Positions 11,839 through 50,616 are shown, numbered from the stretch's first letter. The stretch: 64,000 bases of DNA from Candidatus Eiseniibacteriota bacterium (GCA_052390515.1 JBQTGV010000072.1:7172-71171), one strand, 5' to 3'. A program made the numbers and translations. Notes: generated by a model from the sequence alone, not told the origin.

Positions 11839-12966
11839 TCACCACTCCCGCACGTGCTCGTAGAGCGTCGTGCGTTGCATGGCCCGGAAGCCCGCCTCCT
11901 TGATGATCGCCACGCACTCCTCGGTGGTCGTCGTGTTGCGGTGGTTCGCCAAGCGAAGCACATTCTCCTCGATGAGCGTGCCCCCGAAGTCGTCGCCGCC
12001 GGCGTGCAGCGCGACCTGCCCGGTCTTCTTACCCTCGGAGAACCAGCTCGCCTGGACGTGCTCGAAGCAGTCCAGGTAGATGCGGGCCAGCGCGATGATG
12101 CGCAGGTACTTCGGCGGTCCGGGGCTCTCCGGCACCCACTTCTCCAGCAGGGTGTTCCCCGGCTTGAAGCTCCAGGGCACGAACGCGGTGAACCCGCCGG
12201 TCTCGTCCTGCAGCTCGCGGATGCGTCGCAGGTGCTCGACGATCTCCTCGTCGCGCTCGGCGTGGCCGTACATCATCGTCGCCGTCGACCGATAGCCGAT
12301 CTCGTGCGCGGTACGCATCACTTCCAGCCAGTTCTCCGCGGAGGGCTTCTTCGGGCTGATGCGCTTGCGCACCCGATCCACCAGGATCTCCGCGCCTCCT
12401 CCGGGAATCGTGCGCTGCCCCGCGTTCCACAGCTCCTGCAGGACTTCGCGGATGGAAAGGCCCGAGACCTCCGCCATCGTGGCGATCTCCGACGGGCTCC
12501 ACAGGTGCACGCACAGATCCGGGTAGGCCTTCTTCAAAGCTCGCACCACGTCCACGTAGTACGAGAAGGGGATCTCCGGATTGTGCCCGCCCTGCAGCAG
12601 CGAAGTCGTCGCGCCCTTGGTCACGCCGCGGCCCACCATCTCCACGACTTCGTCGACCGAGTGCCAGTAGCCCTCGGGGTGGCCCGGCTTGCGGTAGAAC
12701 GCGCAGAAGAGGCAGTCAGTGACGCACACGTTCGTGTAGTTGGGGTTGGTGTCGATCACGAAGGTGACGAAGTCGCCGGGGGCGCGTCTCCGGCGCATCT
12801 CGGCACCGAGCGCACACAGATCCGAGAGGTGTGCGTCGCGGAGCAGGAACAGCGCGTCCTGCTCGTCGATCCGCTCGCCGTCGAGGACGCGTTCGGAGAG
12901 CTCCACGAAGCGGGCCGGATCGCCGGCCGGCCGGTGCAGGTCCTGCCAGGCGAAGGTCGTCGCCAT
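11839..12966 (-). CDS. Radical SAM enzyme of the MqnC/MqnE family (futalosine-pathway menaquinone biosynthesis)
   Basis: Starts MATTFAWQDL (ATG 12964-12966). Radical-SAM Cys triad CVTDCLFCAF; strong MqnC/MqnE-like conservation (…YWHSVDEVVE…GGDDFGGTLIEENV…). MqnC cannot be told from MqnE by eye. Confidence 0.85.
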   Translation of the reverse strand: MATTFAWQDLHRPAGDPARFVELSERVLDGERIDEQDALFLLRDAHLSDLCALGAEMRRRRAPGDFVTFVIDTNPNYTNVCVTDCLFCAFYRKPGHPEGYWHSVDEVVEMVGRGVTKGATTSLLQGGHNPEIPFSYYVDVVRALKKAYPDLCVHLWSPSEIATMAEVSGLSIREVLQELWNAGQRTIPGGGAEILVDRVRKRISPKKPSAENWLEVMRTAHEIGYRSTATMMYGHAERDEEIVEHLRRIRELQDETGGFTAFVPWSFKPGNTLLEKWVPESPGPPKYLRIIALARIYLDCFEHVQASWFSEGKKTGQVALHAGGDDFGGTLIEENVLRLANHRNTTTTEECVAIIKEAGFRAMQRTTLYEHVREW

Positions 12967-13748
12967 CAGCGCGCCTCCTCCGCTAGCATCGCCTCGAAAG
13001 CCTGCTCGCCGAACGTCTCCACCGGCCCGATCCGGTAGCGGAAGGTCTCCAGGTACTGCCGGATGCTCTCGGCGTCGAGGTCGAACTCCGGCCCTCGGCG
13101 CGCGGCGATCTCCGGAACACGCTCCTCCCACGTCTCCAGCGACCGCTCGAGGCTCGTCCGGATACGCTCCCGGTCCTCCTCCGGGACGTCGCGGGAAACC
13201 ACCCACCGCGCGAAAACGAAGGGCAGCGCCTGCCAGGAGTGCCACTCTTCGCCCAGGTCGTAGACGAAGGGGAATCCTTCCAGCCCTTCGCAGGCGGCGC
13301 GCAACGCGCTGTCACCGATCAGCAGGCGCGCCTCGTCGTTGGGCAGGTCGCCGCGCTCCAGCGTCACGTGCCGCGCTTCGTAGCGGCGGCGCAGGATGAC
13401 CTCCAGCAGCCGCACTGACGTGGAGCTCTCGCCGGTGAGTCCCACGCGACAGCCGGAGAGCCGGTCGATCCCACAGCGGGCGAAGAGCAGCACGGAGTGC
13501 GCCGGACCCTCGCACGCGATCCCGAAGTCGCCGAGCGGCTCGTAACGGTCCCGCAGCCGGAACCAGTCGACCACCGCCATCGGCCCGCAAGTGGCCGCGC
13601 CGGCGTCGGCCAGGCGACCGAGCTCGCGGGGGACCTCCCGGACGACGTCGTACCCGAGCTCGCTCAGCCCCTCGTAGAACGGCTCACAGTTGAGGTACGG
13701 GATGAGCGCGAGCGTCGTCGCGTTCCGCGTCGTGGACTTCGAGTACAT
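12966..13748 (-). CDS. mqnA: Chorismate dehydratase MqnA (futalosine pathway)
   Basis: 260 aa beginning …TLALIPYLNCEPFYEGL, the typical MqnA N-terminus (periplasmic-binding-protein-like fold). 1-nt start/stop overlap with the downstream mqn gene. Confidence 0.8.
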   Translation of the reverse strand: MYSKSTTRNATTLALIPYLNCEPFYEGLSELGYDVVREVPRELGRLADAGAATCGPMAVVDWFRLRDRYEPLGDFGIACEGPAHSVLLFARCGIDRLSGCRVGLTGESSTSVRLLEVILRRRYEARHVTLERGDLPNDEARLLIGDSALRAACEGLEGFPFVYDLGEEWHSWQALPFVFARWVVSRDVPEEDRERIRTSLERSLETWEERVPEIAARRGPEFDLDAESIRQYLETFRYRIGPVETFGEQAFEAMLAEEAR

Positions 13749-14823
13749 GGTAGAGAGCGTTCCTCCGGACGGGTACCTTGCCCGCCTCGCGAATCATCTT
13801 GAGAATGCGGCTCTGGGTGAGCCCCACCGGGCTCGGCGCCAGCGCGAAGTGCGCGATCTTCTCCTCCACGATCGTGCCGTCCACGTCGTCCGCGCCGAAG
13901 TTCAGCGCCACGGACGCGGTCTCCTCGCCGAGCATGACCCAGTACGCCTTGATGTGGTCGAAGTTGTCGAGCAGCAGGCGTGCCGTGGCGATCGTCCGCA
14001 GCCCGTCGTCGGCCGATGCCGGCCGGTCCACCAGCAGGGTCGTACCCAGCTGGTACTCGAGCGGGATGAACGAGAAGAAGCCGCCGGTCTCGTCCTGCAG
14101 GGAGCGCACCTGGATCATGTGGTCCACGCGCTCTTCCAGTGTCTCGATGTGACCGAACAGCAGCGTACAGTTGGAGCGGATGCCCATCCCGTGCGCGATG
14201 CGGTGGATCTCGAACCAGCGCTCGTGCCCCATCTTGTTGTGGTAGAGCTCGCGGCGGATTCGCTCGGAGAAGACTTCCGCCCCGCCGCCGGGCATCGCCA
14301 CCATCCCGGCGTCGCGCAGCGTGCCGAGCACGTCCTCCACGCTCCTCTTGGAGATCCGCGTGAACCAGTCGATCTCGACGGCGGTCCAGGCCTTGATGGG
14401 CAGCCGCGGATAGGCCTCGTGCAGGCGCCGGACGATCTCCACGTAGTCGTCGAACTTCCACCTGGGATGCAGGCCGCCGACGATGTGGATCTCGTCGATC
14501 TCCTCGCTCCCGTGAGCGAGGATCTGCTCCATGGTCATCTCGTAGGCGTGCTCGTCGCCCTTGCGCGCGGCGAAGTCGCAGAACTTGCAGGTGAGCACGC
14601 ACAGGTTCGTCGGGTTGAGCTGGCGATTGAGCACATAGAGCACGCGATCGCCGGTCCTGCGCCGTTTCGCGGCGTCGGCCAGGCGCCCCAGCGCGAAGAG
14701 ATCCGGCGTCGTCAGGCAGGCCATGCCGTCGGCGAAGTCCAGGCGTTCGCCCGCCTCGATTTTCCCGGCGACGCGACGGAGCGCTTCGTCCCGGATCAGC
14801 GTGCAGTCCACGGTGGCGGCCAT
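13684..14823 (-). CDS. Second radical SAM enzyme of the MqnC/MqnE family
   Basis: Conserved part starts MAATVDCTLIRDEAL (ATG 14821-14823) with GGGAGGT 3 nt upstream. Cys triad CVLTCKFCDF. Paralogue of the 11839..12966 gene (…GADDVDGTIVEEKI…). Confidence 0.8.
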   Translation of the reverse strand: MAATVDCTLIRDEALRRVAGKIEAGERLDFADGMACLTTPDLFALGRLADAAKRRRTGDRVLYVLNRQLNPTNLCVLTCKFCDFAARKGDEHAYEMTMEQILAHGSEEIDEIHIVGGLHPRWKFDDYVEIVRRLHEAYPRLPIKAWTAVEIDWFTRISKRSVEDVLGTLRDAGMVAMPGGGAEVFSERIRRELYHNKMGHERWFEIHRIAHGMGIRSNCTLLFGHIETLEERVDHMIQVRSLQDETGGFFSFIPLEYQLGTTLLVDRPASADDGLRTIATARLLLDNFDHIKAYWVMLGEETASVALNFGADDVDGTIVEEKIAHFALAPSPVGLTQSRILKMIREAGKVPVRRNALYHVLEVHDAERDDARAHPVPQL

Positions 14824-14909
14824 GACCTCCCCGGCGGCAAGGGCGCCCATGATGGGGCCAGGGGGCGGGATGATCAAGGCCGTCGGAGCGAGCGCCCGCC
14901 GGGAGCGGG

Positions 14910-15458
14910 TCAAGCCGACCCGCCCCCCAGCGACCTGCGGAGCTCCTCGAGGTCTTCGGCGCCGAGCCCCGAGAAGTGCCGGACGCGCCCGGTCACGTCC
15001 GTGGTCCCGAAGTACTCCATCGAGCACTTCGCGTGCACGTAGCCCGACGGCTCGAAGCGGCCGTCCTGAAAGTAGACGAGCGAGATCCGCCAGTCGCCGC
15101 GCGGAATCGCCTCGCGGCAGCCGCGGCAGCGGGCGCGGCCGTTCGGCGATCGTTCCGCTCCGTCGACGCGCGGGAGGCGCCGGTGCGCGATGCCCGCGCG
15201 GGCCAGCTCGGAGAGGCGCGCCGCGTCGTCGACGGCCGGCTCGCCCTGCGCCAGCACCTCCAGGAAGGGCTCGGGGCGCTTGAGCGCCGCGCACTCGGGG
15301 TGGAACCACAGCGTCATCTCCCCGTCGGCGAACGGGTTCGGCAGACGTTCGCCGAAGCGGAGCTCGCCCTTGGCGATGGCCTGACCGCAGCCCCGGCACT
15401 TCGCCCGGCCGGTCGGCGCGGTCTCGAAGACGTGCGCCAAGGCTAGTCCGTCCCCCAC
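14910..15458 (-). CDS. Protein with two PARP-type zinc-finger-like modules
   Basis: Two repeats: CRGCGQAIAKGELRFG…WFHPEC and CRGCREAIPRGDWRIS…YVHAKC. GTG start at 15458 (alternative TTG at 15440). Overlaps the end of the upstream AhpD-like gene. Confidence 0.6.
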   Translation of the reverse strand: MGDGLALAHVFETAPTGRAKCRGCGQAIAKGELRFGERLPNPFADGEMTLWFHPECAALKRPEPFLEVLAQGEPAVDDAARLSELARAGIAHRRLPRVDGAERSPNGRARCRGCREAIPRGDWRISLVYFQDGRFEPSGYVHAKCSMEYFGTTDVTGRVRHFSGLGAEDLEELRRSLGGGSA

Positions 15459-16173: not shown

Positions 16174-17316
16174 ATGGCTCGTATCCTCGTCGCCGACGAC
16201 GTCCCCTTCATCGCGGCGATGATCGGCTCCGTGTTCGAGAGGGAGGGCCACGAGGTGGCCATCGCAGCCGACGGCGCGGAGGCCGTCCGCAAGGCGAAGG
16301 ATCTGCTCCCCGATCTCATCCTGCTGGACCTCGTGATGCCGGGGACCGACGGCCTCGAGGCTGCCACGCGGATCAAGAGCGACAGCTCCACCCACCACAT
16401 CCCCATCATGATGATCAGCGCTTTGGGCGACTTGCGCACGATTTCGGACGCGTTCGCCGCGGACGTCGCCGAGTTCGTGACCAAGCCGTTCGAGGCCGAC
16501 GAGCTGCTGGAGAAGGCCTCGATGCTCCTCGGCAGCTTCCGCATGACCTACTCCATCAGCGACGAGAAGCGCATCCCCACCGTCACCGTCCTGCACGACG
16601 AGCTCGCGCTGGAGACGTTCGACCTGCTGCTGCACGCGCTGCGCACCGCCCAGGGCAGCGGCGCGCGCCCGATCGTGCTGGACCTGTCCCGCGTGAGGCG
16701 GCTCGCCGCGGAGACCGAGGCCGAGATCGGCGCCTTCGCGACGAAGATCCGCGAGCTGGGCGAGGACCTGCACATCGTTCGCCCGGAGGCGGGCACGCGC
16801 GCGAGCCAGATCTTGCCGGGCGTCACCGGCGAGCTGAGCCTGCACGACAGCAAGAGCCGTGCGGTGAGCGCGGCCCGTCGCACTGCCCGGGCGCAGGGCT
16901 TCCTCTCCGGTGTGATGACGCCGCTCCCGTCGGCGCCGGCCCAGCGGCCACCCTCCGGGGGCGAAGCGATCCGCTTCGACGTGCTGGACACCCTGGCCAT
17001 GGTCCGCCTGCCCGGTCCGGAGGTCCGCGCCGAGGAGCTCGTCGCCATCGAAGAGGGGCTTCCCCGTTCCGCCCACGTGCTCCTGCTCGACCTTTCCGAG
17101 ATCCGGGAGCTGTCCGCCGCGCGCATTCGGGAGCTCGGGGAGCTCGTCGACCGGATCAGCCTGACCGGGCGGCGCGTGAAGCTGGTCAATCCGTGCCCAG
17201 CGGCCGCGGATGCCCTCCGAGAGGGTGGGCAGGCAGCGAACCTGTTCACCTTGAAGGGTCGACCGCGCGGGTTCCGCCCGGCCGGAGCTGATCCGCAACG
17301 ACCGGGACCGAGGTAG
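16174..17316 (+). CDS. Response-regulator receiver domain protein with C-terminal STAS (anti-sigma-factor-antagonist-like) domains
   Basis: N-terminal CheY-like REC (MARILVADDVPFIAAMI…DLILLDLVMPGTDGLEA…KPFEADEL), followed by two STAS-like segments. Confidence 0.8.
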   Translation: MARILVADDVPFIAAMIGSVFEREGHEVAIAADGAEAVRKAKDLLPDLILLDLVMPGTDGLEAATRIKSDSSTHHIPIMMISALGDLRTISDAFAADVAEFVTKPFEADELLEKASMLLGSFRMTYSISDEKRIPTVTVLHDELALETFDLLLHALRTAQGSGARPIVLDLSRVRRLAAETEAEIGAFATKIRELGEDLHIVRPEAGTRASQILPGVTGELSLHDSKSRAVSAARRTARAQGFLSGVMTPLPSAPAQRPPSGGEAIRFDVLDTLAMVRLPGPEVRAEELVAIEEGLPRSAHVLLLDLSEIRELSAARIRELGELVDRISLTGRRVKLVNPCPAAADALREGGQAANLFTLKGRPRGFRPAGADPQRPGPR

Positions 17317-17465
17317 CAGCGTCCGCCTAGCCTGGCTTAAGCCGGGCGGAAAACGACGGCCCGATCAGGAAGCCCGCCTGTGCCCGGCCGATGTCGCGTT
17401 TCGCACGATCGAAGAGAGCCGGTACTCGGTTTCCGAGAATGACCGACCATCCGGGGTTCCTGGAG

Positions 17466-17495
17466 GTTGAGGTCGGCCGGCCGGATTCGTTATAC
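17466..17495 (+). promoter_or_regulatory. Possible sigma70-type promoter for the B12-rSAM operon
   Basis: TTGAGG-N18-TATACT in the only AT-richer patch of the 290-bp intergenic region, ~110 nt upstream of the ATG at 17607. Confidence 0.35.
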
Positions 17496-17606
17496 TCTCT
17501 CCCATATCGCAACCGCCCGCTGTTGCCCTGCCCCGCGCTTCTCAGGCCCTGGCTGTTCCCACGTTCCCCGGGCCGCGAAGCGTCCGCCGATCAGAAGGGC
17601 TGACCG

Positions 17607-19163
17607 ATGCGAGTCCTGCTCTGCTACCCGTCCCTGCTTCCCGGACAGAAGTCGAAGTACGGGCTGCAGCCTCTCGGAGTGCTGTACATCGCCGCCTTGC
17701 TGCGCCAGCACGGAACCGACGTGCGCGTCCTCGACGCGGACATCGACGGGCTGACCGTCGACGAGATCGTCGACGACATCCTCGGCTGGGAGCCGGATCT
17801 CGTGGGCTTCAGCATGATGACCCCGCAGCTGATCACCGGCCTGGAAGCCTCCGCGCGTCTCAAGCAGGCCCGGCCGGACCTGCGGATCGTGCTGGGCGGT
17901 GCACACCTGGATTCGACTCACGCCGACGTCTTCTCCATGGACGACTGCTTCGACTTCGCGATCTACGGCGAGGGCGAGTTCCCCCTGCTCGAGGTCGTGC
18001 AGAACATGGAGAAGCACGGCACGGCCGACCTCCGCGAGTCGCTGGAGGGAGTCGGTAACGTCATCTGGCGGAACGACGCCGGCGAAGTGGTGGAGAACCC
18101 CTCGCGGCCGTTCCTCACCGACCTCGACGTCCTGCCGCCGGTGGACTACGAGATGGTGGACGTCTCCAAGTACAGCATTCCCACGATGGCCGGAGACTAC
18201 GTGATCTCGATGATGCTCTCGCGGGGGTGCCCCTTCCGGTGCACGTTCTGCGATGCTCCGCAGGTCATGGGAAAGAAGTTCCGCTATTTCTCGATGGACC
18301 GCATCATGCGGGACATCCGGTACTACTCGGAGAAGTACGACTGCAAGAACTTCGTCTTCAAGGACAGCACGTTCACGCCCAACAAGAAGTGGGCGGCGGA
18401 GCTGTGCGACCGGCTGATCGAGTCGGGCCTCGACATCAAGTGGCGGTGCAACACGAGGGTTCACCTCGTGCCTCAACCGCTGCTGGAGAAGATGAAGCAG
18501 GCCGGCTGCTACGTGATCAACTTCGGCGTGGAGTCCGGAGATCCGCAGATCCTCAAGAACATCAAGAAGGAAGTGAAGATCGAGGACATCTACGACGCGC
18601 ACAAGCGGTCCCGGAAACTCGGCATCCGCACGTACGCGACGTTCCTGATGGGCAACCCCGGCGAGACCGACGAGACGGCCCAGAGGACGATCGACGTGGC
18701 CTGCGGTATCCGGCCCAACCTGGCGATGTTCTTCGTCTCCACCGCCTATCCGGGAACGCCCATGTACGAGGATGCGGTGCGGGACGGGATGGTGCAGCCG
18801 CGCTGGTGGGCGACGCCGTACTGGGAGTCGAAGAAGAGCTCGGCCTTCGAGCTCCGTTGGGGCTGGACGGCGAAGGGCGCGCTCAAGATCCCCGGCTTCG
18901 ATTCGGAGAAGTGGCAGAAGAAGGCGACGCGAGCCTTCTATCTTCGCCCGTACTTCATCTGGGACACGATCACGTTCACGCTCCGCAACCCGTACTTCCT
19001 GCGCCACCTCGTGAATCTGGGGTCGGAGCTCCTGCCCTTCTACAAGATTCCTTGGCCGTGGAAGAAGTCTCGCGTGAACGAGCTGCACCGGCGTTACTCG
19101 AGATGCCCGTCCGCACCGAACTGGGACTACGAACAGCGGAGCGCCGTCCAGGCCAGCGAGTGA
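17607..19163 (+). CDS. Cobalamin-binding (class B) radical SAM protein
   Basis: N-terminal B12-binding domain (MRVLLCYPSL…DLVGFSMMTPQ…IVLGGAHLD), radical SAM CxxxCxxC (SRGCPFRCTFCDAP). Confidence 0.85.
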   Translation: MRVLLCYPSLLPGQKSKYGLQPLGVLYIAALLRQHGTDVRVLDADIDGLTVDEIVDDILGWEPDLVGFSMMTPQLITGLEASARLKQARPDLRIVLGGAHLDSTHADVFSMDDCFDFAIYGEGEFPLLEVVQNMEKHGTADLRESLEGVGNVIWRNDAGEVVENPSRPFLTDLDVLPPVDYEMVDVSKYSIPTMAGDYVISMMLSRGCPFRCTFCDAPQVMGKKFRYFSMDRIMRDIRYYSEKYDCKNFVFKDSTFTPNKKWAAELCDRLIESGLDIKWRCNTRVHLVPQPLLEKMKQAGCYVINFGVESGDPQILKNIKKEVKIEDIYDAHKRSRKLGIRTYATFLMGNPGETDETAQRTIDVACGIRPNLAMFFVSTAYPGTPMYEDAVRDGMVQPRWWATPYWESKKSSAFELRWGWTAKGALKIPGFDSEKWQKKATRAFYLRPYFIWDTITFTLRNPYFLRHLVNLGSELLPFYKIPWPWKKSRVNELHRRYSRCPSAPNWDYEQRSAVQASE

Positions 19164-19185
19164 CGGGTCCGCCGGGCGAACACGC

Positions 19186-20859
19186 ATGAACGTCGTCGTC
19201 GCGCTCGGAGCCGCCGGTGCGCTCCTCGTCGTCGCGGCCATCGCCCTACCCTCCTCCGCGCTCGTCGCTTGCCTCCGTCCCGAGCTGCCCGGCCCCGACG
19301 CGCCGCTGCTGCAGGGGGCCGCGCTCTTCCGCGCCGGGCTCGCCGTGCTGGGCCTCGTCCTGGCCGGAGGCGCGCTGCTGGGCAGGCGCCCCGCCCGGGC
19401 GGTCGTCGCACCGGCAGCGGCCCGCCCCTTCGGAAGGCGGGAAGCCGCGCTGCTCGCCCTCCTGCTTCTCACCGCCACCGCGCTCCGCCTCTACGGACTC
19501 GGAGCGGGACTCTGGTACGACGAGATCCTGACCTTCTCGAAGTTCGCGCGCATGCCCTACGGCGAGATCGTCTCCACCTACGACTCGCAGAACAACCACT
19601 TTGTCTACTCGCTCGCCGCGCACGCCTCCTTCTCGCTCCTCGGCGAGAGCGCGTCGTCGGTACGACTGCCGGCGGTGCTCTTTGGCGTCGGGAGCATCGC
19701 CGCGCTGTGGTTGCTCGCCCGCCGCCTCACCGGCCCGCGGGAGTCCTTGCTGGCCTGCGCGCTGCTGACCTTCTCGTATCACCACATCTGGTTCAGCCAG
19801 AACGCGCGCGGCTACTCCGCCCTGCTGCTCTGGACGAACCTGTCGAGCTGGCTGCTGGTCCGCGCTTGCCGCGAGAGGCGCGAAGGGCTCTGGCTGCTCT
19901 ACGGCGTGACCGTCTCGCTCGGGGTCTGGACGCACATGACCATGCTGTTCGTGATCCTCGGACACTTCGTCATCTTCGCCGTCCACGCCTTGCGGAAGCG
20001 ACACGAGCGTCCGTCCCCGTGGATCGGGATGCTGGGCTTCGTGTTCAGCGGACTCCTCGTCTTCCAGCTGCACGCGCTCGTGCTGCCGCAGCTCTTCGGG
20101 GGAACGCTGTGGCAGGGCGTGCAGAGCACCGTCGGCGACTGGAAGAATCCGGTCTGGACCGTGCTCGAGATGCTGCGGGGCCTCGCCGGGGCGAACCTCG
20201 GCGGCATCGTGGCCCTCACCGGCTTCCTCGTCCTGGGCGTGGGCGTCTCGAGCTACGCGCGCGAGGAGCCGGTCGTCGTGCAGCTGCTGTTCCTGCCGGC
20301 CGCCCTCGGCGGCCTGCTCACCATGGCTCTCGGGCACCCGCTCTGGCCGCGGTTCTTCTTCTTCGCCGCGGGGTTCGCCGTGCTCGTCGTCGTCCGTGCC
20401 ACGACCGTGCTGGGGCGATGGGCTGCGCGGCTCCTCCGCCGAACCCCCCGCACCGGTGAGATCCTCGGAACCGCGTTCGCCATCCTCGGCATCCTGCTCA
20501 TGCTCCCTTCGCTCCGCCATGTGTACGCGCCGAAGCAGGACTTCGGCGGCGCGTTCGCGTACGTGCGGGAGCATCAGCAGCCGGGCGATGTCGTCGTGAC
20601 GGTGGGCATCGCCACCGACGCGTTCCGGAAGCTCCACGGCGTCGACTGGCCCGCGGTGGAGAGTCCGGCCGCGCTGGACGCCGTCCGGGCGAGCGCGCGC
20701 CGGACCTGGATGGTCTACACGCTTCCCCTGCACGTCGAATCGGTGTATCCGGAGCTCATGGCGAAGGTGCGGGAGGATTTCGCGGTCGAGACGAAGTTCT
20801 GGGGCACGCTCGGGGGCGGCACGATCTTCGTCTGCCGGGCCGACGGGGGCGCCGCGTGA
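19186..20859 (+). CDS. GT-C fold membrane glycosyltransferase (GT39/GT83, ArnT/PMT-like)
   Basis: 557 aa, polytopic. Conserved DE loop motif near the N-terminus (LYGLGAGLWYDEILTFSKF). Confidence 0.75.
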   Translation: MNVVVALGAAGALLVVAAIALPSSALVACLRPELPGPDAPLLQGAALFRAGLAVLGLVLAGGALLGRRPARAVVAPAAARPFGRREAALLALLLLTATALRLYGLGAGLWYDEILTFSKFARMPYGEIVSTYDSQNNHFVYSLAAHASFSLLGESASSVRLPAVLFGVGSIAALWLLARRLTGPRESLLACALLTFSYHHIWFSQNARGYSALLLWTNLSSWLLVRACRERREGLWLLYGVTVSLGVWTHMTMLFVILGHFVIFAVHALRKRHERPSPWIGMLGFVFSGLLVFQLHALVLPQLFGGTLWQGVQSTVGDWKNPVWTVLEMLRGLAGANLGGIVALTGFLVLGVGVSSYAREEPVVVQLLFLPAALGGLLTMALGHPLWPRFFFFAAGFAVLVVVRATTVLGRWAARLLRRTPRTGEILGTAFAILGILLMLPSLRHVYAPKQDFGGAFAYVREHQQPGDVVVTVGIATDAFRKLHGVDWPAVESPAALDAVRASARRTWMVYTLPLHVESVYPELMAKVREDFAVETKFWGTLGGGTIFVCRADGGAA

Positions 20860-21413
20860 CGCTGCTGCGGGTCTTCTTGTTCGTCGGACTGCTGGTACGG
20901 CGCCTCAATCTGGAGGCGATGAAGCGCGCGCAGGCGCGCCCCGAGACGCGTGCTCCGCAGGTCACGCTCGTCAAGGTGATCAAGGGCGGCGTGCAGCTCT
21001 TCCTCGCCGCGCAGGCGCTCTTCCTGGACGTGTGGCCGATAGCCGATGCGCCGGTCTCCCTCCGCGCGGGCGGCGTCGTGCTCTTCGCCCTCGGCCTCGC
21101 GACGACGATCGCGAGCCGCCGCCGCCTCGGCAGGAACTGGGTGGACCTGGAGGAGGCGCAGATCCTCCGCGAGCACGAGCTGGTGACGGACGGCCTCTAC
21201 CGGTACATTCGGCACCCGATCTACACCGCGGACCTTCTGCTCTTCGCCGGGATGCAGGTCGCGCTGGCGTCCTGGCTCGTCGTCGCGGTGCTGCCGCTCG
21301 TCGTCATCCTGGTGCGCCAGAGCACGCGGGAGGAGGAGCAGCTCGTACAGGCGTTTCCGGGGTACGTCGAGTACCGCCTGCGGACGAAGCGGTTCATTCC
21401 GTTCGTCATCTAG
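20856..21413 (+). CDS. ICMT / phospholipid-methyltransferase-family membrane methyltransferase
   Basis: GTG start overlapping the upstream stop (GTGA). Carries the ICMT/PEMT C-terminal signature (…DGLYRYIRHPIYTADLLLFAGMQ…EEEQLVQAFPGYVEYRLRTKRFIPFV). Confidence 0.75.
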   Translation: MTLLRVFLFVGLLVRRLNLEAMKRAQARPETRAPQVTLVKVIKGGVQLFLAAQALFLDVWPIADAPVSLRAGGVVLFALGLATTIASRRRLGRNWVDLEEAQILREHELVTDGLYRYIRHPIYTADLLLFAGMQVALASWLVVAVLPLVVILVRQSTREEEQLVQAFPGYVEYRLRTKRFIPFVI

Positions 21414-21525
21414 GACACCCCAAGGGCAGTCGGCCGCCCCTGCCGCGACCGGGGGCAACCCGCTCCGCCGGGCGGCCGTACCTCGCAACGAAGGCCGGCC
21501 GCGCCCGGCCCCTGGAGGAGAATCG

Positions 21526-22860
21526 ATGAAGTCCACGATCGGGTTCGCGGCCGTGCTCACCCTTACCGTCGTGCCCGCTCACCTCGTGCGTGCCGTTCCC
21601 ATCGAGGCGTCCGACCGCCAGGCGGTCGTCGAAGAGCTGGCCAAGGCCCTCTCCGAGATCTACGTCTTCGCCGAAGCCGGCGAGAAGTACGCCGCCGACA
21701 TCCGCACCCGGGCGGCGGCCGGCGAGTACGCATCCATCGAGGACGACGCCGCGCTCGCCGACCGGCTCACCCGCGACCTGCAGGCCGTACACGCCGACAA
21801 GCACCTACGCGTCGTCACCGCGGCGGACCCCCGCGCGGAGCGTTTCCGCCCGCCGCCGCCGCCCGACCCGGGTTCGCCGGCCGTCGATCCGCGCGCCGAG
21901 CGCGTCGCCCGCGAGCGCCGCGCCAACTTCGGCTTCACGCGGCTCGAAGTCCTTCCCGGAAACGTCGGGGTGCTGGAGCTGCGCGGGTTCGTCCCCGCGG
22001 AGATCGCCGGGGAGACCGGCACGGCCGCCATGCGCTTCCTGGCGAACTGCGACGCGATCATCTTCGACCTGCGCAAGAACGGCGGCGGGAGTCCGTCCAT
22101 GATCCAGCTCCTCACCAGCTACCTCGTTCCGGAGCATCCGCAACACATCAACAGCTTCTACATGCGCGAGGGCGACGAGACCATCCAGTTCCACACGCTG
22201 CCCTACGTGCCGGGCACGCGGCTGCCCGACGCGGAGGTCTTCGTGCTCACCAGCTCGATCACGTTCTCGGCGGCGGAGGAGTTCACGTACAACCTGCAGG
22301 CCATGGAGCGCGCCACGGTCGTCGGGGACACGACCGGCGGCGGTGCGCATCCCGTCCGGCCGGCCCCGCTCGGCGCGGGGATGATCGCGGTGATCCCCTT
22401 CGGGCGCGCGGTGAATCCCGTGACCGGAACGAACTGGGAGGGCACGGGCGTGGTGCCGCACATCGCCTGCGAAGCCGACGAGGCGCTGGACGTCGCCTAC
22501 GCCGAGGCGCTGCGGCGGCTCGCCGACCGCGCGCCGGACGAGCTTCGCAAGACCGAGCTCGCCTGGACGCTTGAGGAGGCTGCCGCGCGGCGGAGTCCCG
22601 CGGCTCTCGGGGCGAAGGCGGTGGCGTCGCTCACCGGAACCTACGGCGCGCGCACCGTGAAGTCGGAACGCGGTCGGCTCTGGCTGCAGCCCGAGACAGG
22701 CCCCACGCTCGAGCTGCTGCCCCTCCGCGAAGACGTCTTCACGCTGCTGGACTCTCAGACCCCGACCCGGGTCACGTTCGTCCGGAGCCGGGGTGGAAGG
22801 GCATCCGAGATCGTGATCTCGGGTCCGGCCGGGGAGATCGCCCGCTTCCCGAGGAGCTAG
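21526..22860 (+). CDS. S41-family peptidase (C-terminal processing / tail-specific protease-like), secreted
   Basis: Signal peptide MKSTIGFAAVLTLTVVPAHL; S41 catalytic region (LTSSITFSAAEEF). GGAGGAG Shine-Dalgarno. Confidence 0.8.
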   Translation: MKSTIGFAAVLTLTVVPAHLVRAVPIEASDRQAVVEELAKALSEIYVFAEAGEKYAADIRTRAAAGEYASIEDDAALADRLTRDLQAVHADKHLRVVTAADPRAERFRPPPPPDPGSPAVDPRAERVARERRANFGFTRLEVLPGNVGVLELRGFVPAEIAGETGTAAMRFLANCDAIIFDLRKNGGGSPSMIQLLTSYLVPEHPQHINSFYMREGDETIQFHTLPYVPGTRLPDAEVFVLTSSITFSAAEEFTYNLQAMERATVVGDTTGGGAHPVRPAPLGAGMIAVIPFGRAVNPVTGTNWEGTGVVPHIACEADEALDVAYAEALRRLADRAPDELRKTELAWTLEEAAARRSPAALGAKAVASLTGTYGARTVKSERGRLWLQPETGPTLELLPLREDVFTLLDSQTPTRVTFVRSRGGRASEIVISGPAGEIARFPRS

Positions 22861-23004: not shown

Positions 23005-24519
23005 ATGAGACGCGACCGACCCCCGCACGGAATCACAGTCACCGCCGTCGCCGCCCTCGCCCTGGCGCCGGCCGTCGCCACGGCACAGCTCATCGACGAC
23101 TTCGAGGCCGGGCCGTTCAGCTTCGGCTGCGGGTACCCGGGCTGCACGTACGTCCAGAACATCGGAAGTCACGGGATCGAACCGACACGCTCGGTGACTC
23201 TGTGGAGCAACAGCGCCGACGCCCAGGTGACGGCCAACCTGGCCACGACGAGCTTCGACGATGCGGCCGTGTTCGGCTTCTACGCGGGCACCACTTCCTA
23301 CGCGAACGTGTCGTACGACCCGCCGGGCGACGTGGATCTGACGGGAGGCGGGACGTACGAGTACATCGCCATCCGCGCGAGCGCCGTCGCCGGGACGAAG
23401 GTCGACGTCGAGGTCACGCTCGACAACGGGTTCTACGCGGTGGCGACCGCCGACATCGACCCGTCGGGCACCACCTACGTGGGCTGGACGGACTTCGGAG
23501 TCCTGACCGAGCAGGACTTCGAGGCGGTCGACCGCTTCAACTTCACCTTCCGCAACGACACCTGGTTCGGCTGGGTCGACGTGACGGTCTGGGACATCCG
23601 CCTCGGGCGCTGGGAGTTCGGCCTGTGGGACGGCGTAGTGACCGACATCGTATGGTGCCCGACCTGTCCGATCCAGGCGCTCATCTACGACGGGTACACC
23701 AGCGGTCTGTCCGCGGCCTACCACATGGACTTCGGACCCGCGTCGGTCATGGGCATCGATCCCCAGCCCTTCGTCACCATGACGGGCTTCGACTCGGGAG
23801 GTGGCCGCGGCATGAACGGCGCCTCCGCCGGAAGCGCGCTCTACTGGGGCCCTCAGTCCTACGACACCTCGACCTTCGAGTTCCTCGTCGAGTACACCGC
23901 CGGTGCCGGGAACCTGTGGTACCACTCGCCGGATCCGGTCATCGTGCTGAACGACGGTACGTCCTTCGAGCTCCTCACCGTGTTGACGGTCGGTGGTCGC
24001 TACCCCGCTCCGGTCGACAACGTCCTCGAGTCCTTCCGGTTCGACATCGATCCCGCGCAGCCGCTGCTCTTCGAAGACGTGGCGGTGACCCCCCTCACCC
24101 CCGGGCCGGGAGTGGACGGCGCGTGGCGGGTCTCCTTCAAGCTCTCCGCCGACGGCACCGCCGACGTGGCCCTGCCGCTGTTCACCACCATGATGACCGC
24201 CGACTGGGCGCCGGCTGGGACGCCGACGGACGCGCCGCTCGTCGCCGCGCCGACGCCTGCGGCTCTCTCGGCGCAGCCCAGCGTCACCGCCGGTCCAACC
24301 CGGCTCGTGCTCTCCCGGCCCGCGGACGCCCGGGGCGAAGTCTCCGTCCTCGACGTCAGCGGCCGGCTCGTGCGGCGGCTGGGCATCGGAGCGGGTGCGA
24401 GCTCGGTCGACTGGGACGGGCGCGGCGAAGCCGGCCGCCTCCTTCCTCCCGGCGTCTACTTCGCCACGCTACCCGGTGGGATCGGGGAGCGGACGGCGCG
24501 CATCACCGTCGTGCGATGA
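23005..24519 (+). CDS. Secreted hypothetical protein with C-terminal FlgD-Ig-like / CTD sorting-type domain
   Basis: Signal peptide (…VAALALAPAVATAQ). C-terminus …VLDVSGRLVRRLGIGAGASSVDWDGRGEAGRLLPPGVYFATL. Its stop overlaps the sigma-factor start (ATGA). Confidence 0.7.
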   Translation: MRRDRPPHGITVTAVAALALAPAVATAQLIDDFEAGPFSFGCGYPGCTYVQNIGSHGIEPTRSVTLWSNSADAQVTANLATTSFDDAAVFGFYAGTTSYANVSYDPPGDVDLTGGGTYEYIAIRASAVAGTKVDVEVTLDNGFYAVATADIDPSGTTYVGWTDFGVLTEQDFEAVDRFNFTFRNDTWFGWVDVTVWDIRLGRWEFGLWDGVVTDIVWCPTCPIQALIYDGYTSGLSAAYHMDFGPASVMGIDPQPFVTMTGFDSGGGRGMNGASAGSALYWGPQSYDTSTFEFLVEYTAGAGNLWYHSPDPVIVLNDGTSFELLTVLTVGGRYPAPVDNVLESFRFDIDPAQPLLFEDVAVTPLTPGPGVDGAWRVSFKLSADGTADVALPLFTTMMTADWAPAGTPTDAPLVAAPTPAALSAQPSVTAGPTRLVLSRPADARGEVSVLDVSGRLVRRLGIGAGASSVDWDGRGEAGRLLPPGVYFATLPGGIGERTARITVVR

Positions 24520-25157
24520 GATTCCCGGCAGCCTCCGACCGCGTTCTGCTACCCTGGCTCGGGCCGGCGCGGAGGCTGCCCTTGTCGACCACGGAGCAAG
24601 TCCGCGGGCTCCTCGACGGGATGCGGGCGGGGAACGCCGAGGCCCGGGACCGTCTGTTCTCCATCGTGTACCACGACCTCCGTCGCATCGCCCGGAGCCA
24701 CCTCCGCGGCCGGTCCACCGGCACGCTCGGCACGACGGCGATGGTCAACGAAGCCTACTTGCGCCTCGCCGGACCGAACGTCGGCCCCTGGCAGGACCGC
24801 GCGCACTTCTTCGCCGTGGCCTCTCGCGCCATGCGGCAGATCCTCGTCGACCAGGCACGGCGGAAGCTCGCGCAGAAGCGAGGAGGCGGCGCGCCCGTCA
24901 CCAGCTTCGAGTCGCGGGACGCGGGCGAGGAGCCGCGCTTCCTCGAGCTGATCGAGCTGGACGACGCGCTGGGACGTCTCGCCGCGCTCAACGAGCGCCT
25001 GGCGCGCATCGTCGAGCTTCGCTTCTTCGGTGATCTCTCCGAGCAGGAGACGGCCGAAGCGCTCGGCGTCAACGAACGCACCGTGCGCCGCGACTGGCGC
25101 AAGGCGCGCGCGTTCCTGCATCACGTCCTCCGCGAGCCGAAGGCGGGCGGCGAGTGA
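24516..25157 (+). CDS. ECF-type sigma-70 family RNA polymerase sigma factor (kinase-associated subgroup)
   Basis: In-frame tail of ORF 23202..25157. Region 2 and region 4 helices are present (…VYHDLRRIARSHL… …LSEQETAEALGVNERTVRRDWRKARAFL). ATGA overlap on both sides. Confidence 0.8.
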   Translation: MRFPAASDRVLLPWLGPARRLPLSTTEQVRGLLDGMRAGNAEARDRLFSIVYHDLRRIARSHLRGRSTGTLGTTAMVNEAYLRLAGPNVGPWQDRAHFFAVASRAMRQILVDQARRKLAQKRGGGAPVTSFESRDAGEEPRFLELIELDDALGRLAALNERLARIVELRFFGDLSEQETAEALGVNERTVRRDWRKARAFLHHVLREPKAGGE

Positions 25158-27964
25158 CCTCCGGCGACCGCTGGGCGGCCATCGAGGCGATCCTCGACGA
25201 GTTGTTGGAGCTGGCTCCGGGAGAGCGCAGCGTGCGCCTCGTGCAGCTCGCCGCGGGGGACGAGGAGCTCCGCGCGGAGATCGAGGCGCTGCTGGCCGAG
25301 GACCAGGGCGAGAACGGTCCGCTCGATCGCCGCCTCGACTCCGTCGCGGCTGCGCTGCTGGACGACACGGACACGCCCTCCCAGGAGGGGCGCCTCATCG
25401 GACCGTATCGGGTGGTCCGGGAGCTCGGCCGCGGGGGAATGGGCGAGGTCCTGCTCGCCGAGCGCGCGGACGGGCAGTTCGAGCAGCAGGTGGCGCTGAA
25501 GATCGTTCGTGGCGGACTGAACCGCGAGGACATCCTCCGGCGATTCCGCCACGAGCGGACCATCCTCGCCCGGCTGCGCCATCCCAACATCGCCTTGCTG
25601 CACGACGGCGGTATCGCGGCGGACGGCGTGCCCTACTTTGCCATGGAGTACGTGCAGGGCGAGCCCATCACGGACTACTGCGACCGCCGGACCCTGGGCA
25701 TCCCGGAGCGGATCGCGCTCTTCGAGTCGGTGTGCCGCGCGGTGCAGTACGCGCACCGCAACCTGGTGATCCACCGCGACCTGAAGCCGAGCAACGTGCT
25801 GGTCACCGCCGACGGAGTGCCGAAGCTGCTCGACTTCGGCATCGCCAAGGTCATCAACCCGGGAGTGGACGATCCCACCCAAGCCACCCGCGGCTTCCTC
25901 ACCCCCGCGTACGCGGCTCCCGAGCAGATCCGCGGCGAGCCGACGTCCACCGCGACGGACGTCTTCTCGCTGGGCGTGCTCCTCTACGTCCTGCTCGCCG
26001 GGCATCACCCCCACGGCGACACGTCCAGCTCCGTCACCGTGGCGCGCGCGATCGTGGAAGAGGATCCGGTGGAGCCCAGCACCGTTGCCGGCAGGAGCAG
26101 CGACGCCGCCCGCCTGCGACGTGCCGACCCCGCCGAGCTCAGGCGCGCGCTGCGCGGCGATCTCGACAACATCGTGGCCAAGGCGCTGCGTAAGAACGCC
26201 GATGACCGCTACGCGTCCGTCGACGATCTGCGCACCGATCTCGAGCGCCACCGCGGCTCGCTCCCGGTGTCCGCGCGTCCGGCCACCGCGCGCTACCGGA
26301 TGCACAAGTTCGTGCGGCGACATCGCGTCGGTGTCGCGGCGGCGGCCGCCGCCGCTCTCGCCCTCGCGGCCGGTGTCGCGGGGATCGCGTGGCAGGCGAA
26401 CGTCGCCGCCCGCGAGCGGGACCGCGCTCGCGCCGTGAAGGACTACTTGCTGGAAGTGTTCTCCGGAGCCGACCCGGCGATCGAATCCGGCGAGACCCTC
26501 ACGGCGCTGGAGCTCGTGGAGCGCGGGGCCGCGCGCGTGTCGGATCGTTTCGCTCACAGCCCGGGGATCCGCGCCGAGGTCATGCAGACGCTCGGCGCCG
26601 TTCTCACCAGCCTGGGGCGGTATGAACGTGGAGACTCGCTGCTCTCCACCGCCCTGGTGGAGCTTCGGCACGAAGGGCGCGAGGAAGCGGTGGTGGAGAC
26701 GCTTCATCGCCTGGGCGGCAACGCCCGCGCACGCGGCGACTTCGACCTGGCTGCGGCGCGCTACGAAGAAGCCGTACGCATCGCCCGCGAGGCGTTCGGC
26801 GAGCGGGACTCGCTGGCCGCGAGCGCGCTCGGCGAGCTCGGCATGGTGCTCACGGACCAGGCGAAGTACGACGAGGCCGAGGCCGTGCTCGGCGAGGCGC
26901 TGGCGGCCGCGAGGGCGGGACGCCATCGCCGGCTTCCCCACCACCTGTCCAACCTGGCGAACCTCGAGCAGAAGCGCGGGCGGCTGGAGGCGGCGGAGGC
27001 CCTCTACCGCGAGTCGATCGAGCTGCACCGCGCGTCGGCGCCGCACGGAGACGTGGCCACGGCGCGGGCGATGAGCGAGCTCGCCTCCGTGCTCCTCCAG
27101 CTAGGCCGGGTGAGCGAAGGGGAGAGTCTGAACCGAGAGGCCCTGGCGATGCTCCGCCGCGAATACGGAGAAGCCGGGCATCCCGAGGTCGCCACCGCCC
27201 TCAACAACCTCGCCGGGGCCGTCCTGATGAGCAGGCGGTGGGCGGAGGCCGAGCCCCTGCTGCTCGAGGCGCTGGCCATGCACCGGCGGTTCCTCGACGA
27301 CAGCGGGGCCATCTCCAGCACGTTGTCGAACCTCGCCGTGGCGCGGGGCGAGCAGGGTGATCTCGAAGGCGCCGAGCGGTACATCGGCGAAGCGATCGAG
27401 TCGATTCGGCGAGCGCTGGGTGACCGACACCCTGAGCTCGTCATTCCCCTCTTGAACCGCGGCTCCGTTCTCCGGAACCTGCGTCGGTTCGATGAAGCCG
27501 AACCGGTCCTGCAGGAAGCCTTGGCGATCGCCCGAGAAACGCTCGGTGAGCATCATCGCGACACGTGCACCGCGATGCTACATCTCGCGGCGCTGTACCG
27601 CGACAGCAAGAGGCTGGAGGACTCGGAGCGCGCGTATCGCGAGGCCGCTTCGGCTTATCGGGGTGCGCTCGGGGAGGGTCATCCCGAGGAGATCGACGCA
27701 CGCATCGAGTGGGCGCGCATCGTGGCGAAGCTCCGGAGAACCAGGGAGTCGCAGCAGATGCTGGACCGCACCATCGCCGATGCACGCGCGGGTGGGGCGG
27801 AGGCGCGGTTTGTCCTGTCCCGAGCCCTCTTGGAGCGCGCCATGGTCGGAGGCGACGACGTGCTGGTGAGCGAGGCCTACGAGATCCGCCGCGCGGAGCT
27901 CGGCGAGCAGCATCCGATGACCGTCGCGGCAAGGTCCGAGCTGGAGCGGAGAGGCGGTCTCTAG
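25154..27964 (+). CDS. Serine/threonine protein kinase with TM helix and C-terminal TPR repeats
   Basis: Hanks-kinase motifs (GRGGMGEV, VALK, HRDLKPSNVL, DFGIAK, APE). One TM segment (VGVAAAAAAALALAAGVAGIAW), then ~550 aa of TPR-like repeats. Confidence 0.9.
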   Translation: MTSGDRWAAIEAILDELLELAPGERSVRLVQLAAGDEELRAEIEALLAEDQGENGPLDRRLDSVAAALLDDTDTPSQEGRLIGPYRVVRELGRGGMGEVLLAERADGQFEQQVALKIVRGGLNREDILRRFRHERTILARLRHPNIALLHDGGIAADGVPYFAMEYVQGEPITDYCDRRTLGIPERIALFESVCRAVQYAHRNLVIHRDLKPSNVLVTADGVPKLLDFGIAKVINPGVDDPTQATRGFLTPAYAAPEQIRGEPTSTATDVFSLGVLLYVLLAGHHPHGDTSSSVTVARAIVEEDPVEPSTVAGRSSDAARLRRADPAELRRALRGDLDNIVAKALRKNADDRYASVDDLRTDLERHRGSLPVSARPATARYRMHKFVRRHRVGVAAAAAAALALAAGVAGIAWQANVAARERDRARAVKDYLLEVFSGADPAIESGETLTALELVERGAARVSDRFAHSPGIRAEVMQTLGAVLTSLGRYERGDSLLSTALVELRHEGREEAVVETLHRLGGNARARGDFDLAAARYEEAVRIAREAFGERDSLAASALGELGMVLTDQAKYDEAEAVLGEALAAARAGRHRRLPHHLSNLANLEQKRGRLEAAEALYRESIELHRASAPHGDVATARAMSELASVLLQLGRVSEGESLNREALAMLRREYGEAGHPEVATALNNLAGAVLMSRRWAEAEPLLLEALAMHRRFLDDSGAISSTLSNLAVARGEQGDLEGAERYIGEAIESIRRALGDRHPELVIPLLNRGSVLRNLRRFDEAEPVLQEALAIARETLGEHHRDTCTAMLHLAALYRDSKRLEDSERAYREAASAYRGALGEGHPEEIDARIEWARIVAKLRRTRESQQMLDRTIADARAGGAEARFVLSRALLERAMVGGDDVLVSEAYEIRRAELGEQHPMTVAARSELERRGGL

Positions 27965-30566: not shown

Positions 30567-30612
30567 CGGGGGGCTCTCCGGACGACGCCAGTCGGGTGGT
30601 CGACGCTAGCAG

Positions 30613-30641
30613 CGGCCCCCCAGGCCGTCAACGAGGGGACT
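30613..30641 (-). promoter_or_regulatory. Putative promoter of UbiD-like gene: TTGACG-N17-TAGCGTCG
   Basis: On the minus strand: cgTTGACGgcctggggggccgctgcTAGCGTcg, ~47 nt upstream of the ATG. The extended -10 region ctgcTAGCGTcg is identical to the UbiX-like promoter at 36884-36913. Confidence 0.45.
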
Positions 30642-30707
30642 GAAACGGGAAGGCCGGCCTTCCGATGGACGAAGGGAGGTCCGAACCCCTTTCCCGGCGG
30701 CTACCCG

Positions 30708-32840: not shown

Positions 32841-33443
32841 TTGCGAAGGAACTCCGTTCTTCTGATGTGTCACGTGCTCGCGGCCGCGGTGCTCCTCGCC
32901 GCTCCCGTGCACGCCGCCGACGCCGACCTCGCCACGGCGTGGGAGTACTTCTACGACGCCGACTTCGAGCTCGCGCTGGGCGAGGTCGACCGCTTCCTGG
33001 GCGCCGTCGTGCTGGATGCCCCGCGACTGCGCGAGGCGCACGCGCTCGCCGGGCAGTGTCACGCCCGGCTCGGCGACGAGGTCGCCGCGGTCGAGTCGTT
33101 CTGCAGCGCGCTCGCGGTGGACGCCGCGTGGTCGCCGGATCCGACGGTGTTCTCTCTCGAGGAGCTCGCGCTCTTCCGCCGCGCACACTCCGAGTGCCCG
33201 CAGGTCGCGTCACCCGAGCCGGTGACGCCGGACCCGATGCCCGGCGGCGTTCCGGACGAGGTCGCGGCGGCGGCGCTCGCAGGAAGCCCCTGGTACCACA
33301 AGAAGAGCTTCTGGATCGGCACCGGGGCCTTGCTGACGGCGCTCGTCATCGCCGGGAGCAGCTCCGACGACGGCGCACCGACCGGCGATCAGGTCCCCGG
33401 CTTCCCCGACCCGCCTGGGCCGGCGCCGGCGTGGACGCCATGA
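32841..33443 (+). CDS. Secreted/membrane hypothetical protein
   Basis: Signal peptide (MCHVLAAAVLLAAPVHA) and a C-terminal hydrophobic segment. ATGA overlap with the downstream large gene. Confidence 0.55.
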   Translation: MRRNSVLLMCHVLAAAVLLAAPVHAADADLATAWEYFYDADFELALGEVDRFLGAVVLDAPRLREAHALAGQCHARLGDEVAAVESFCSALAVDAAWSPDPTVFSLEELALFRRAHSECPQVASPEPVTPDPMPGGVPDEVAAAALAGSPWYHKKSFWIGTGALLTALVIAGSSSDDGAPTGDQVPGFPDPPGPAPAWTP

Positions 33444-40958: not shown

Positions 40959-40965
40959 CGCACGC

Positions 40966-50610: not shown

Positions 50611-50616
50611 GGCGCC

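Follow-up and report, generated by a model that had tools for sequence, protein, structure and literature searches.

A radical SAM enzyme and a GT-C glycosyltransferase as the conserved core of a putative envelope-glycosylation locus in Candidatus Eiseniibacteriota

Introduction

Lipid A is modified with an aminosugar by the Arn system (ArnC-ArnD-ArnT) and by the Francisella FlmF-NaxD-FlmK system. In Bordetella, a GT2 glycosyltransferase, a deacetylase and a GT-C glycosyltransferase (encoded by lgmA/B/C) are required for the addition of glucosamine to lipid A (PMC4993483). In the hopanoid side-chain module (HpnJ with HpnI, HpnK and HpnL), the GT2 enzyme HpnI adds N-acetylglucosamine to bacteriohopanetetrol, the deacetylase HpnK yields the glucosamine form, and the radical S-adenosylmethionine (rSAM) enzyme HpnJ has been assigned the ring contraction to a cyclitol ether (PMC13459092). 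The lipid-modifying rSAM enzymes treated in a 2026 review are Tes, Mss, Gms, Grs, Gmm, Cds, HpnH, HpnJ, HpnP/R, Jaw5 and the ladderane enzymes. Another rSAM enzyme with an amino-sugar substrate is AprD4 of the apramycin pathway (PDB 6fd2), a 1,2-diol dehydratase that modifies the glucosamine ring of paromamine. Here we describe a locus in a stretch of 64,000 nucleotides from a Candidatus Eiseniibacteriota bacterium (GCA_052390515.1, JBQTGV010000072.1:7172-71171), hereafter the window, in which three genes at 17607-21413 on the plus strand encode an rSAM protein, a GT-C glycosyltransferase and an ICMT/PEMT-family membrane methyltransferase.

GT-C enzymes use lipid-phosphate-linked sugars as donors, and these are normally made by ordinary nucleotide-sugar enzymes. 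Known members of the ICMT family place a methyl group on a carboxylate, phosphate, amine or thiol that neighbours a lipid anchor. In the literature searched, we found no description of the rSAM family at this locus or of an rSAM enzyme coupled to a GT-C cassette. The reading that we tentatively prefer, at a little short of even confidence, is that the rSAM and GT-C proteins tailor a lipid-carried sugar and attach it to the cell envelope.

Results

To compare the locus with its relatives, we used 54 non-redundant loci carrying an orthologue of the rSAM gene, which were searched with the window proteins and with the neighbour proteins of relatives. Fifteen loci counted as well flanked, having 2 kb or more on each side of the rSAM gene, and 103 loci of other class-B rSAM enzymes (1.47 Mb) formed the comparison set. 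A GT-C orthologue (34-55% identity) lies within 10 kb at 24 of the 54 rSAM loci and at 12 of the 15 well-flanked ones, against 0 of 103 in the comparison set (Fisher p = 1e-13). Where enough downstream sequence is available, it stands directly 3' of the rSAM gene on the same strand in about half the cases (14/27 loci). The orthologues come from Acidobacteriota, Planctomycetota, Myxococcota, Proteobacteria, Spirochaetes and Acidimicrobiia, and the labels of the metagenome-assembled genomes (MAGs) span at least nine lineages (Vicinamibacterales, Pirellulales, Sedimentisphaerales, Myxococcota, 'Deltaproteobacteria', Alphaproteobacteria, Methylococcales, Spirochaetaceae and Acidimicrobiia).

The first-pass annotation had treated the three genes as a unit, and this view holds in part. 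The full triad is syntenic in Eisenbacteria relatives, and one further lineage (locus L079) has a looser version in which a GT2 gene separates the GT-C gene from the ICMT gene. The ICMT gene itself occurs at 0 of 22 orthologous genome loci and at 1 of the 54 orthologous rSAM loci overall. The conserved core is the rSAM-GT-C pair, which recurs across many phyla, and not the triad.

Many related loci contain a second rSAM copy (about 55% identity to the first), often divergent and a few kilobases away, as at L003 20684-21577, L005 17839-19407, L007 16229-17884 and L010 11681-13357, and also at L088, L094, L095 and L101. The second copies group in a separate clade (100% bootstrap), and the window has a single rSAM copy. 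Two orthologues on long contigs of Acidobacteriota MAGs (L019 10001-11676 and L022 10001-11659) are broken across several reading frames, probably through long-read indel errors rather than as pseudogenes.

In other phyla the pair sits within a larger cassette. The recurrent order is (epimerase, Polysacc_deac_1 deacetylase), rSAM, GT-C, GT2 and LPG_synthase_TM, continuing with an uncharacterised membrane protein of about 520 aa, an FAD protein and (sulfatase-like, Wzx). GT2 and LPG_synthase_TM genes are each found in 11/15 well-flanked loci. In NCBIfam, the cassette GT2 is best matched by dolichyl-phosphate hexose transferase, ArnC and AglJ, and the LPG_synthase_TM protein (L004 14267-15253; also L009, L011, L163 and L165, in each case after the GT-C-GT2 pair) by a generic 'flippase-like domain' model only. 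The 520-aa protein is weakly similar to a putative Leptospira glycosyltransferase family. The FAD proteins (L004 16976-18412; L079 6663-8090; L164 1051-2490 and 9788-11230) match UDP-galactopyranose mutases (UGMs) in the PDB, of the long type (Trypanosoma 4dsg; 3ute; about 480-520 residues), a hint that a furanose might be the sugar transferred.

The locus studied here may best be read as a trimmed version of this widespread, uncharacterised envelope-glycosylation cassette. Wzx and epimerase partners were sought throughout the 64-kb window and none was found; the candidate partners there were a sulfatase (27% identity) and a GT4 protein (23%), and both were set aside as unrelated. An alkaline-phosphatase-superfamily run lies at 48682-56094 on the plus strand (Phosphodiest, Sulfatase, Phosphodiest, broken by an M42 peptidase gene and an unannotated open reading frame), and families akin to it adjoin the rSAM cassette in L079 and L131. 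The Phosphodiest genes of this run (48.7-56.1 kb) were rejected as cassette orthologues, sharing only 23-30% identity with the L079 copies.

The rSAM gene (17607..19163, plus strand, ATG start) encodes 518 aa arranged as an N-terminal Rossmann-type domain, an rSAM core and a Trp-rich C-terminal helical domain. Pfam places a B12-binding domain at residues 15-130 (PF02310, 78.6 bits) and Radical_SAM at residues 204-363 (E = 1.6e-25), and the architecture is of class B. The CxxxCxxC motif is formed by C208-x3-C212-x2-C215, with all three cysteines invariant in 24/24 aligned homologues. An auxiliary Fe-S cluster was considered and dropped, as C301 is the sole invariant cysteine beyond this triad and forms no motif. 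The sequence has no hydrophobic segment, consistent with a soluble protein.

Among the best 120 database homologues, identity to the rSAM protein ranges from 55 to 96%, and in species-representative genomes it is 55-73% at 22 loci, with the next values no higher than 36%. By these sequence comparisons, the protein belongs to a large, unnamed and sharply bounded family. The public names of its relatives ('YgiQ', 'BchE', 'Fe-S oxidoreductase') are generic, wrong or uninformative, and it reaches the cutoff of no curated NCBIfam family. The best curated match is HpnJ (TIGR03471; 217.8 bits, cutoff 577.6), and others are ApyD (197 bits, cutoff 750, covering the N-terminal domain and core at residues 1-390) and BchE (TIGR02026; 190.9 bits, cutoff 481.35).

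HpnJ is the only curated match that aligns through the C-terminal helical domain. BLASTP against Paraburkholderia HpnJ gives 30% identity over 451 residues, C-terminal helices included, and against BchE 29% identity limited to about the first 389-396 residues. In a neighbor-joining tree, the rSAM family and a paralogous subclade are monophyletic with 100% bootstrap and distant from BchE, and the grouping of the family with HpnJ has 30% bootstrap. A firm placement with HpnJ was dropped because of this value and because HpnJ and BchE give similar BLASTP identities; HpnJ stays a lead. The NCBIfam score, the tree and BLASTP all argue against BchE, and no bch or puf genes lie nearby. Clustering with that non-lipid family, which the first-pass annotation had named as a finding that would count against its own lipid-pathway proposal, is thus not seen.

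The structural model of the rSAM protein (pLDDT 83.8) finds its best PDB match in AprD4 (TM-scores 0.65/0.74), which is also the best solved-structure match by sequence (E = 4e-31); MgmA, TsrM, CysS, TokK and OxsB are further structural matches. The two proteins share a Rossmann N-domain and rSAM core, and AprD4 is known to act on an amino sugar. They differ in that identity is 21%, with a sequence match confined to the core (residues 167-397), and AprD4 lacks the Trp-rich C-terminal domain and acts on a soluble aminoglycoside within a secondary-metabolite cluster. The nearest relatives are HpnJ by sequence and AprD4 by structure, both of which modify amino sugars by dehydration or rearrangement. 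To our knowledge, AprD4 uses no cobalamin, and we know of neither reaction as a cobalamin-dependent methylation. Cobalamin use and methylation by the rSAM protein are putative. The B12-dependent C-methylation suggested by the first-pass annotation is not established, the best structural match being a diol dehydratase and the best sequence match having been assigned a ring contraction. Nor did the proposed comparison with HpnP and HpnR bear out a kinship: at 112 bits, HpnR stays well under its cutoff of 650, and HpnP is not among the matches listed (25 of 29 NCBIfam families).

The GT-C gene (19186..20859, plus strand, ATG start) encodes 557 aa with a Pfam PMT_2 match of 67 bits (GT39-like), about 10 or more transmembrane helices and a small C-terminal alpha/beta domain. 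A W-x-D-E motif (W110, D112, E113) in the loop after the third transmembrane helix is invariant in 35 homologues, and the preceding loop (residues 66-83) is Arg-rich, consistent with a cytoplasmic side. The model (pLDDT 84.9) matches PglB, STT3, ALG12, ArnT, EmbB, AftA and Pmt4 with probability 1.0; this fold similarity is generic (TM-scores 0.4-0.5), and the fold search assigned no subfamily. The protein is predicted from the model to be a membrane glycosyltransferase of GT-C fold with its acidic motif in an outward loop. ArnT proper was considered and rejected: the ArnT model is absent from the NCBIfam matches, which comprise only Agl23 and the MT1671 mannosyltransferase at 29-35 bits, the PDB sequence search returned no match, and the window has no arn-like genes.

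The third gene (20856..21413, plus strand, GTG start, 185 aa) matches the Pfam families PEMT (52.4 bits, cutoff 25) and ICMT (38.5 bits, cutoff 24). Its product aligns over the full length with the Methanosarcina Ma-ICMT structure (4a2n, E = 6.6e-13), and the motifs R119-H120-P121-x-Y123 and E159-E160...Y170...Y173 (EE..L..Y..Y) are invariant in homologues. It is below the NCBIfam cutoffs for isoprenylcysteine methyltransferase (73.6 vs 160), LmtA (18.8 vs 325) and MddA (27.2 vs 270). NCBI records a protein of 100% identity to it from a Candidatus Eiseniibacteriota MAG, in line with the source phylum. These Pfam matches and motifs are its likeness to the family that includes Ste14/ICMT, Ma-ICMT, the Leptospira lipid A phosphate methyltransferase LmtA, and MddA; a position after a GT-C/GT2 pair, however, is not described for the family in the literature searched. 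By analogy with its relatives, the protein could plausibly act on a polyprenyl-phosphate-linked sugar or on the acceptor.

The ICMT gene keeps its position in Eisenbacteria-like relatives, and the order GT-C, GT2, ICMT is found in L079 (ICMT at 14621-15118), L162 (6521-7078) and the Chloroflexota-labelled MAG L164 (9012-9584). A close relative retains the rSAM and GT-C genes without room for an ICMT gene. Cassettes with an ICMT gene lack the LPG_synthase_TM gene and vice versa (3-4 loci vs at least 12, a small sample). The methyltransferase is a facultative accessory of the cassette.

The compact arrangement described in the first-pass annotation was reproduced throughout, including the coordinates and, by Pfam, the domain calls for all three genes. 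The rSAM and GT-C genes are 22 nt apart, and the GT-C and ICMT-family genes share a 4-nt GTGA overlap, through which the latter is predicted to be translationally coupled to the former. The start codons of the rSAM and ICMT-family genes are supported by homologue alignments and that of the GT-C gene by 95-100% query coverage in homologues. The window has a G+C content of about 70%, and third-position G+C is 0.91-0.94 in all three reading frames, matching the other real genes in the window.

Upstream, a plus-strand gene for a response regulator with a STAS-like C-terminal region (16174..17316, Pfam) ends 290 nt before the rSAM gene. We treat it as a neighbour and not as a member of the system: it has the same position and orientation in two Eisenbacteria-like relatives, and in other phyla it does not adjoin the rSAM-GT-C pair. 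The 290-nt spacer and the TTGAGG-N18-TATACT site within it (17467..17496, plus strand, about 110 nt 5' of the rSAM start codon) were likewise reproduced. This is the one sigma-70-like match in 17200-21700, where shuffles expect 0.3. The relative L171 keeps both hexamers though its spacer has a 38-nt indel, a conservation that favours the site as a candidate promoter and is suggestive. The leader of about 110 nt (17497-17606, compared with L171 8310-8421) is more conserved than the spacer 5' of the -35 hexamer. A riboswitch, for cobalamin or another ligand, was sought in the spacer; Rfam gave no match of any kind, either over the whole window at gathering thresholds or over 17250-17700 at E <= 1. 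The folding energy of the leader is no better than that of shuffles (z = -0.32).

An S41-family peptidase gene (21526-22860, plus strand), with a GGAGGAG ribosome-binding site, begins 112 nt 3' of the ICMT-family gene. It may be co-transcribed with the triad, because no terminator-like site was found on the plus strand after the ICMT-family gene. S41-like genes adjoin the GT-C/ICMT genes in three relatives, two of them convergent (about 755 aa) and that of L171 on the same strand.

Genes of the futalosine route to menaquinone lie on both sides of the locus, all on the minus strand (11839-15399, 28803-30566, 36295-36849 and 40122-41180). The set comprises an MqnA-like VitK2_biosynth protein, two rSAM enzymes of the CofH/MqnC/MqnE type, UbiD, a UbiX-like flavoprotein and a UbiA prenyltransferase. 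The two MqnC/E-type reading frames of the window are about 80-200 aa longer than the gene calls of relatives, and their true starts are probably internal. Two further plus-strand genes (23005-24519 and 32867-36298) encode large, probably secreted proteins ending in FlgD_ig, one of them with DUF11 repeats. Genes with an FlgD_ig tail also flank the triad in relatives, and the tail may be typical of this lineage, serving as a C-terminal domain for sorting or anchoring. On the plus strand, a pair of Ser/Thr protein kinase genes occupies 25154-27964 and 29982-32741, close to each other; one of the two is fused to a long TPR array (936 aa).

Discussion

The cassette of relatives resembles the Arn, Lgm and Flm systems in having a GT2 synthase, a deacetylase, a putative flippase and an outer-face GT-C transferase, and by analogy it would follow the same three-component logic of periplasmic glycosylation: GT2 loading, flipping, and GT-C transfer outside the cytoplasmic membrane. 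It differs from them in several ways. The known systems are not known to include an rSAM enzyme, a UGM-like flavoprotein or an ICMT-like methyltransferase, and the GT-C protein studied here shows generic GT-C similarity and no ArnT-family NCBIfam match. The GT2 and deacetylase genes are not in the window, and the cassette is also found in MAGs labelled Chloroflexota and Acidimicrobiia, groups understood to be monoderm. Its presence in these MAGs argues against a lipid A-like molecule, one of the substrates raised in the first-pass annotation, as the general target.

The hopanoid module offers a second comparison. In Paraburkholderia, hpnJ adjoins the GT2 gene hpnI and an LPG_synthase-domain gene, the trio found in cassette relatives, and both arrangements put an rSAM enzyme beside enzymes that place an amino sugar on a lipid, a likeness drawn from weak homology. 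The differences are considerable, starting with the low identity and sub-cutoff score against HpnJ. The cassette GT2 is of the polyprenyl-phosphate-hexose type and not an HpnI, and the cassette deacetylase is of the Polysacc_deac_1 family, to which HpnK is not known to belong. The hopanoid module also lacks a GT-C transferase, which is the tightest partner of this rSAM enzyme. The survey of the window found no hopanoid genes (shc, hpnH, hpnI, hpnK), and the labelled neighbours at the 22 orthologous genome loci are glycan-type.

In the glycosylation pathway that we tentatively favor, a sugar, probably an amino sugar, would be loaded onto polyprenyl phosphate at the cytoplasmic face by a GT2 enzyme encoded outside the window; this donor-synthesis half has to be assumed for the organism, because no such partner genes lie within the 64 kb. 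The soluble rSAM enzyme would then tailor the lipid-linked sugar by 5'-deoxyadenosyl-radical chemistry, the candidates being an HpnJ/AprD4-like dehydration or rearrangement or, should the enzyme indeed bind cobalamin, a C-methylation. Because it is soluble and needs S-adenosylmethionine and a reductant, the enzyme would act in the cytoplasm, before the GT-C step. The carrier with its tailored sugar would be flipped across the membrane, and the GT-C transferase, via its periplasm-facing D112/E113 loop, would move the sugar onto an envelope acceptor. In lineages carrying the ICMT gene, its product may methylate the lipid-linked intermediate or the acceptor. Tailoring of the lipid-linked sugar donor is the most economical role for the rSAM enzyme. 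The first-pass annotation had placed a membrane lipid, such as a methylated isoprenoid, at the center of the pathway; the GT2, flippase-like, deacetylase, UGM-like and Wzx genes of relatives point to lipid-carried sugar transfer instead. We infer that the locus adds a radical-SAM tailoring enzyme and, facultatively, an ICMT-like methyltransferase to lipid-carrier periplasmic glycosylation.

Several observations weigh against this interpretation. The 64-kb window contains no gene for a GT2, a flippase-like protein, a deacetylase or a UGM-like protein, and the link to HpnJ is weak (218 vs 578 bits; 30% bootstrap; BchE about equally similar over the core). Some rSAM orthologues have no nearby glycosylation gene (P0006, L006, L016 and L021), and GT-C cassettes exist without this rSAM gene (L163 and L164), so that the transferase does not require the rSAM enzyme. 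Because every relative comes from a MAG or a metagenome contig, the counts are limited by taxon labels and contig ends.

One different explanation, which we regard as rather improbable, is that a cobalamin-dependent rSAM enzyme C-methylates or alkylates a membrane lipid (a hopanoid, isoprenoid, quinone or lipid-A-like molecule), which is then glycosylated by the GT-C protein and methylated by the ICMT-family protein. A B12-binding domain and an rSAM core do occur in one protein here, the methylases TsrM, CysS, TokK and MgmA are among its good structural matches, and the ICMT family acts on lipid-anchored substrates, with LmtA and MddA among the weak NCBIfam matches. The comparison with the hopanoid methylases is nevertheless unfavorable (HpnR far below its cutoff, HpnP not among the matches listed for 25 of the 29 families), and lipid A is further disfavored by the cassettes in Chloroflexota- and Acidimicrobiia-labelled MAGs. 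The flanking futalosine-pathway genes could suggest a quinone, but this menaquinone link, drawn from the mqn and ubiD/X/A genes, was rejected: only close Eisenbacteria relatives share their synteny, and in other phyla the orthologues have no MqnE homologue in their vicinity. The neighbours in those phyla are sugar-nucleotide and polyprenyl-phosphate-sugar enzymes, and labelled neighbours elsewhere are all glycan-type, squalene, hopanoid and carotenoid genes not having been directly searched there. GT-C donors are, from knowledge of the family, lipid-phosphate-linked, so the carrier is more likely to be the lipid in play.

There is also a slim chance that the genes modify a protein or peptide, with the GT-C protein as a PMT-type O-glycosyltransferase and an ApyD-like rSAM enzyme and the ICMT-like protein acting on the same secreted or lipid-anchored protein. 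The PMT_2 match, the structural similarity of the GT-C protein to Pmt4 and oligosaccharyltransferases, and the nearby secreted FlgD_ig-domain proteins and S41 peptidase would fit, as would the prenylated protein C-terminus that is the classic ICMT substrate. ApyD, an rSAM enzyme of ribosomally synthesised and post-translationally modified peptides, scores 197 bits, yet its cutoff is 750 and its match covers residues 1-390 only. No conserved short precursor-peptide gene was seen among clustered neighbour reading frames of at least 80 aa, and the S41 and FlgD_ig neighbours are not conserved beyond Eisenbacteria relatives. Protein glycosylation as a last step would in any case fit the sugar-tailoring pathway, and only a peptide-directed role of the rSAM enzyme is a true rival. 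That the three genes are neighbours by lineage-specific accident, with no shared pathway, we consider very improbable indeed. Most orthologous loci have no ICMT gene, and the rSAM gene is sometimes on its own. Against this reading, the rSAM and GT-C genes are same-strand neighbours in many phyla, an arrangement not seen around other class-B rSAM enzymes; in four independent contexts an ICMT gene comes directly after a GT-C gene of this family or after the GT2 partner; and the 4-nt overlap is found both here and in relatives.

Conclusions

An rSAM step wired to a GT-C transferase and a polyprenyl-phosphate sugar synthase does not appear in the literature searched and has no curated family model. 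Identity of at least 55% across phyla, together with the sharp boundary of the family, implies one specific, selected rSAM reaction. Its identification would bring to light a new sugar or headgroup of the envelope, could provide a biomarker, lipid or glycan, for Acidobacteriota, Planctomycetota, Myxococcota and candidate phyla, and would test the reach of HpnJ/Cds-type chemistry beyond hopanoids and archaeal lipids.

A bolder version of the sugar-tailoring proposal, unlikely in its full form, is that the rSAM family is a new sugar-remodelling enzyme acting on a polyprenyl-phosphate-linked amino sugar, and that the ICMT-like protein is a new methyltransferase of polyprenyl-linked intermediates, able to take the place in the cassette that the flippase-like protein otherwise occupies. 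The product, ring-contracted, deoxygenated or C-branched in the manner of HpnJ, Cds or AprD4, would then be exported and installed by its dedicated GT-C transferase. If true, this would be a previously unrecognised, radical-chemistry-dependent envelope modification common to many uncultured soil and sediment lineages.

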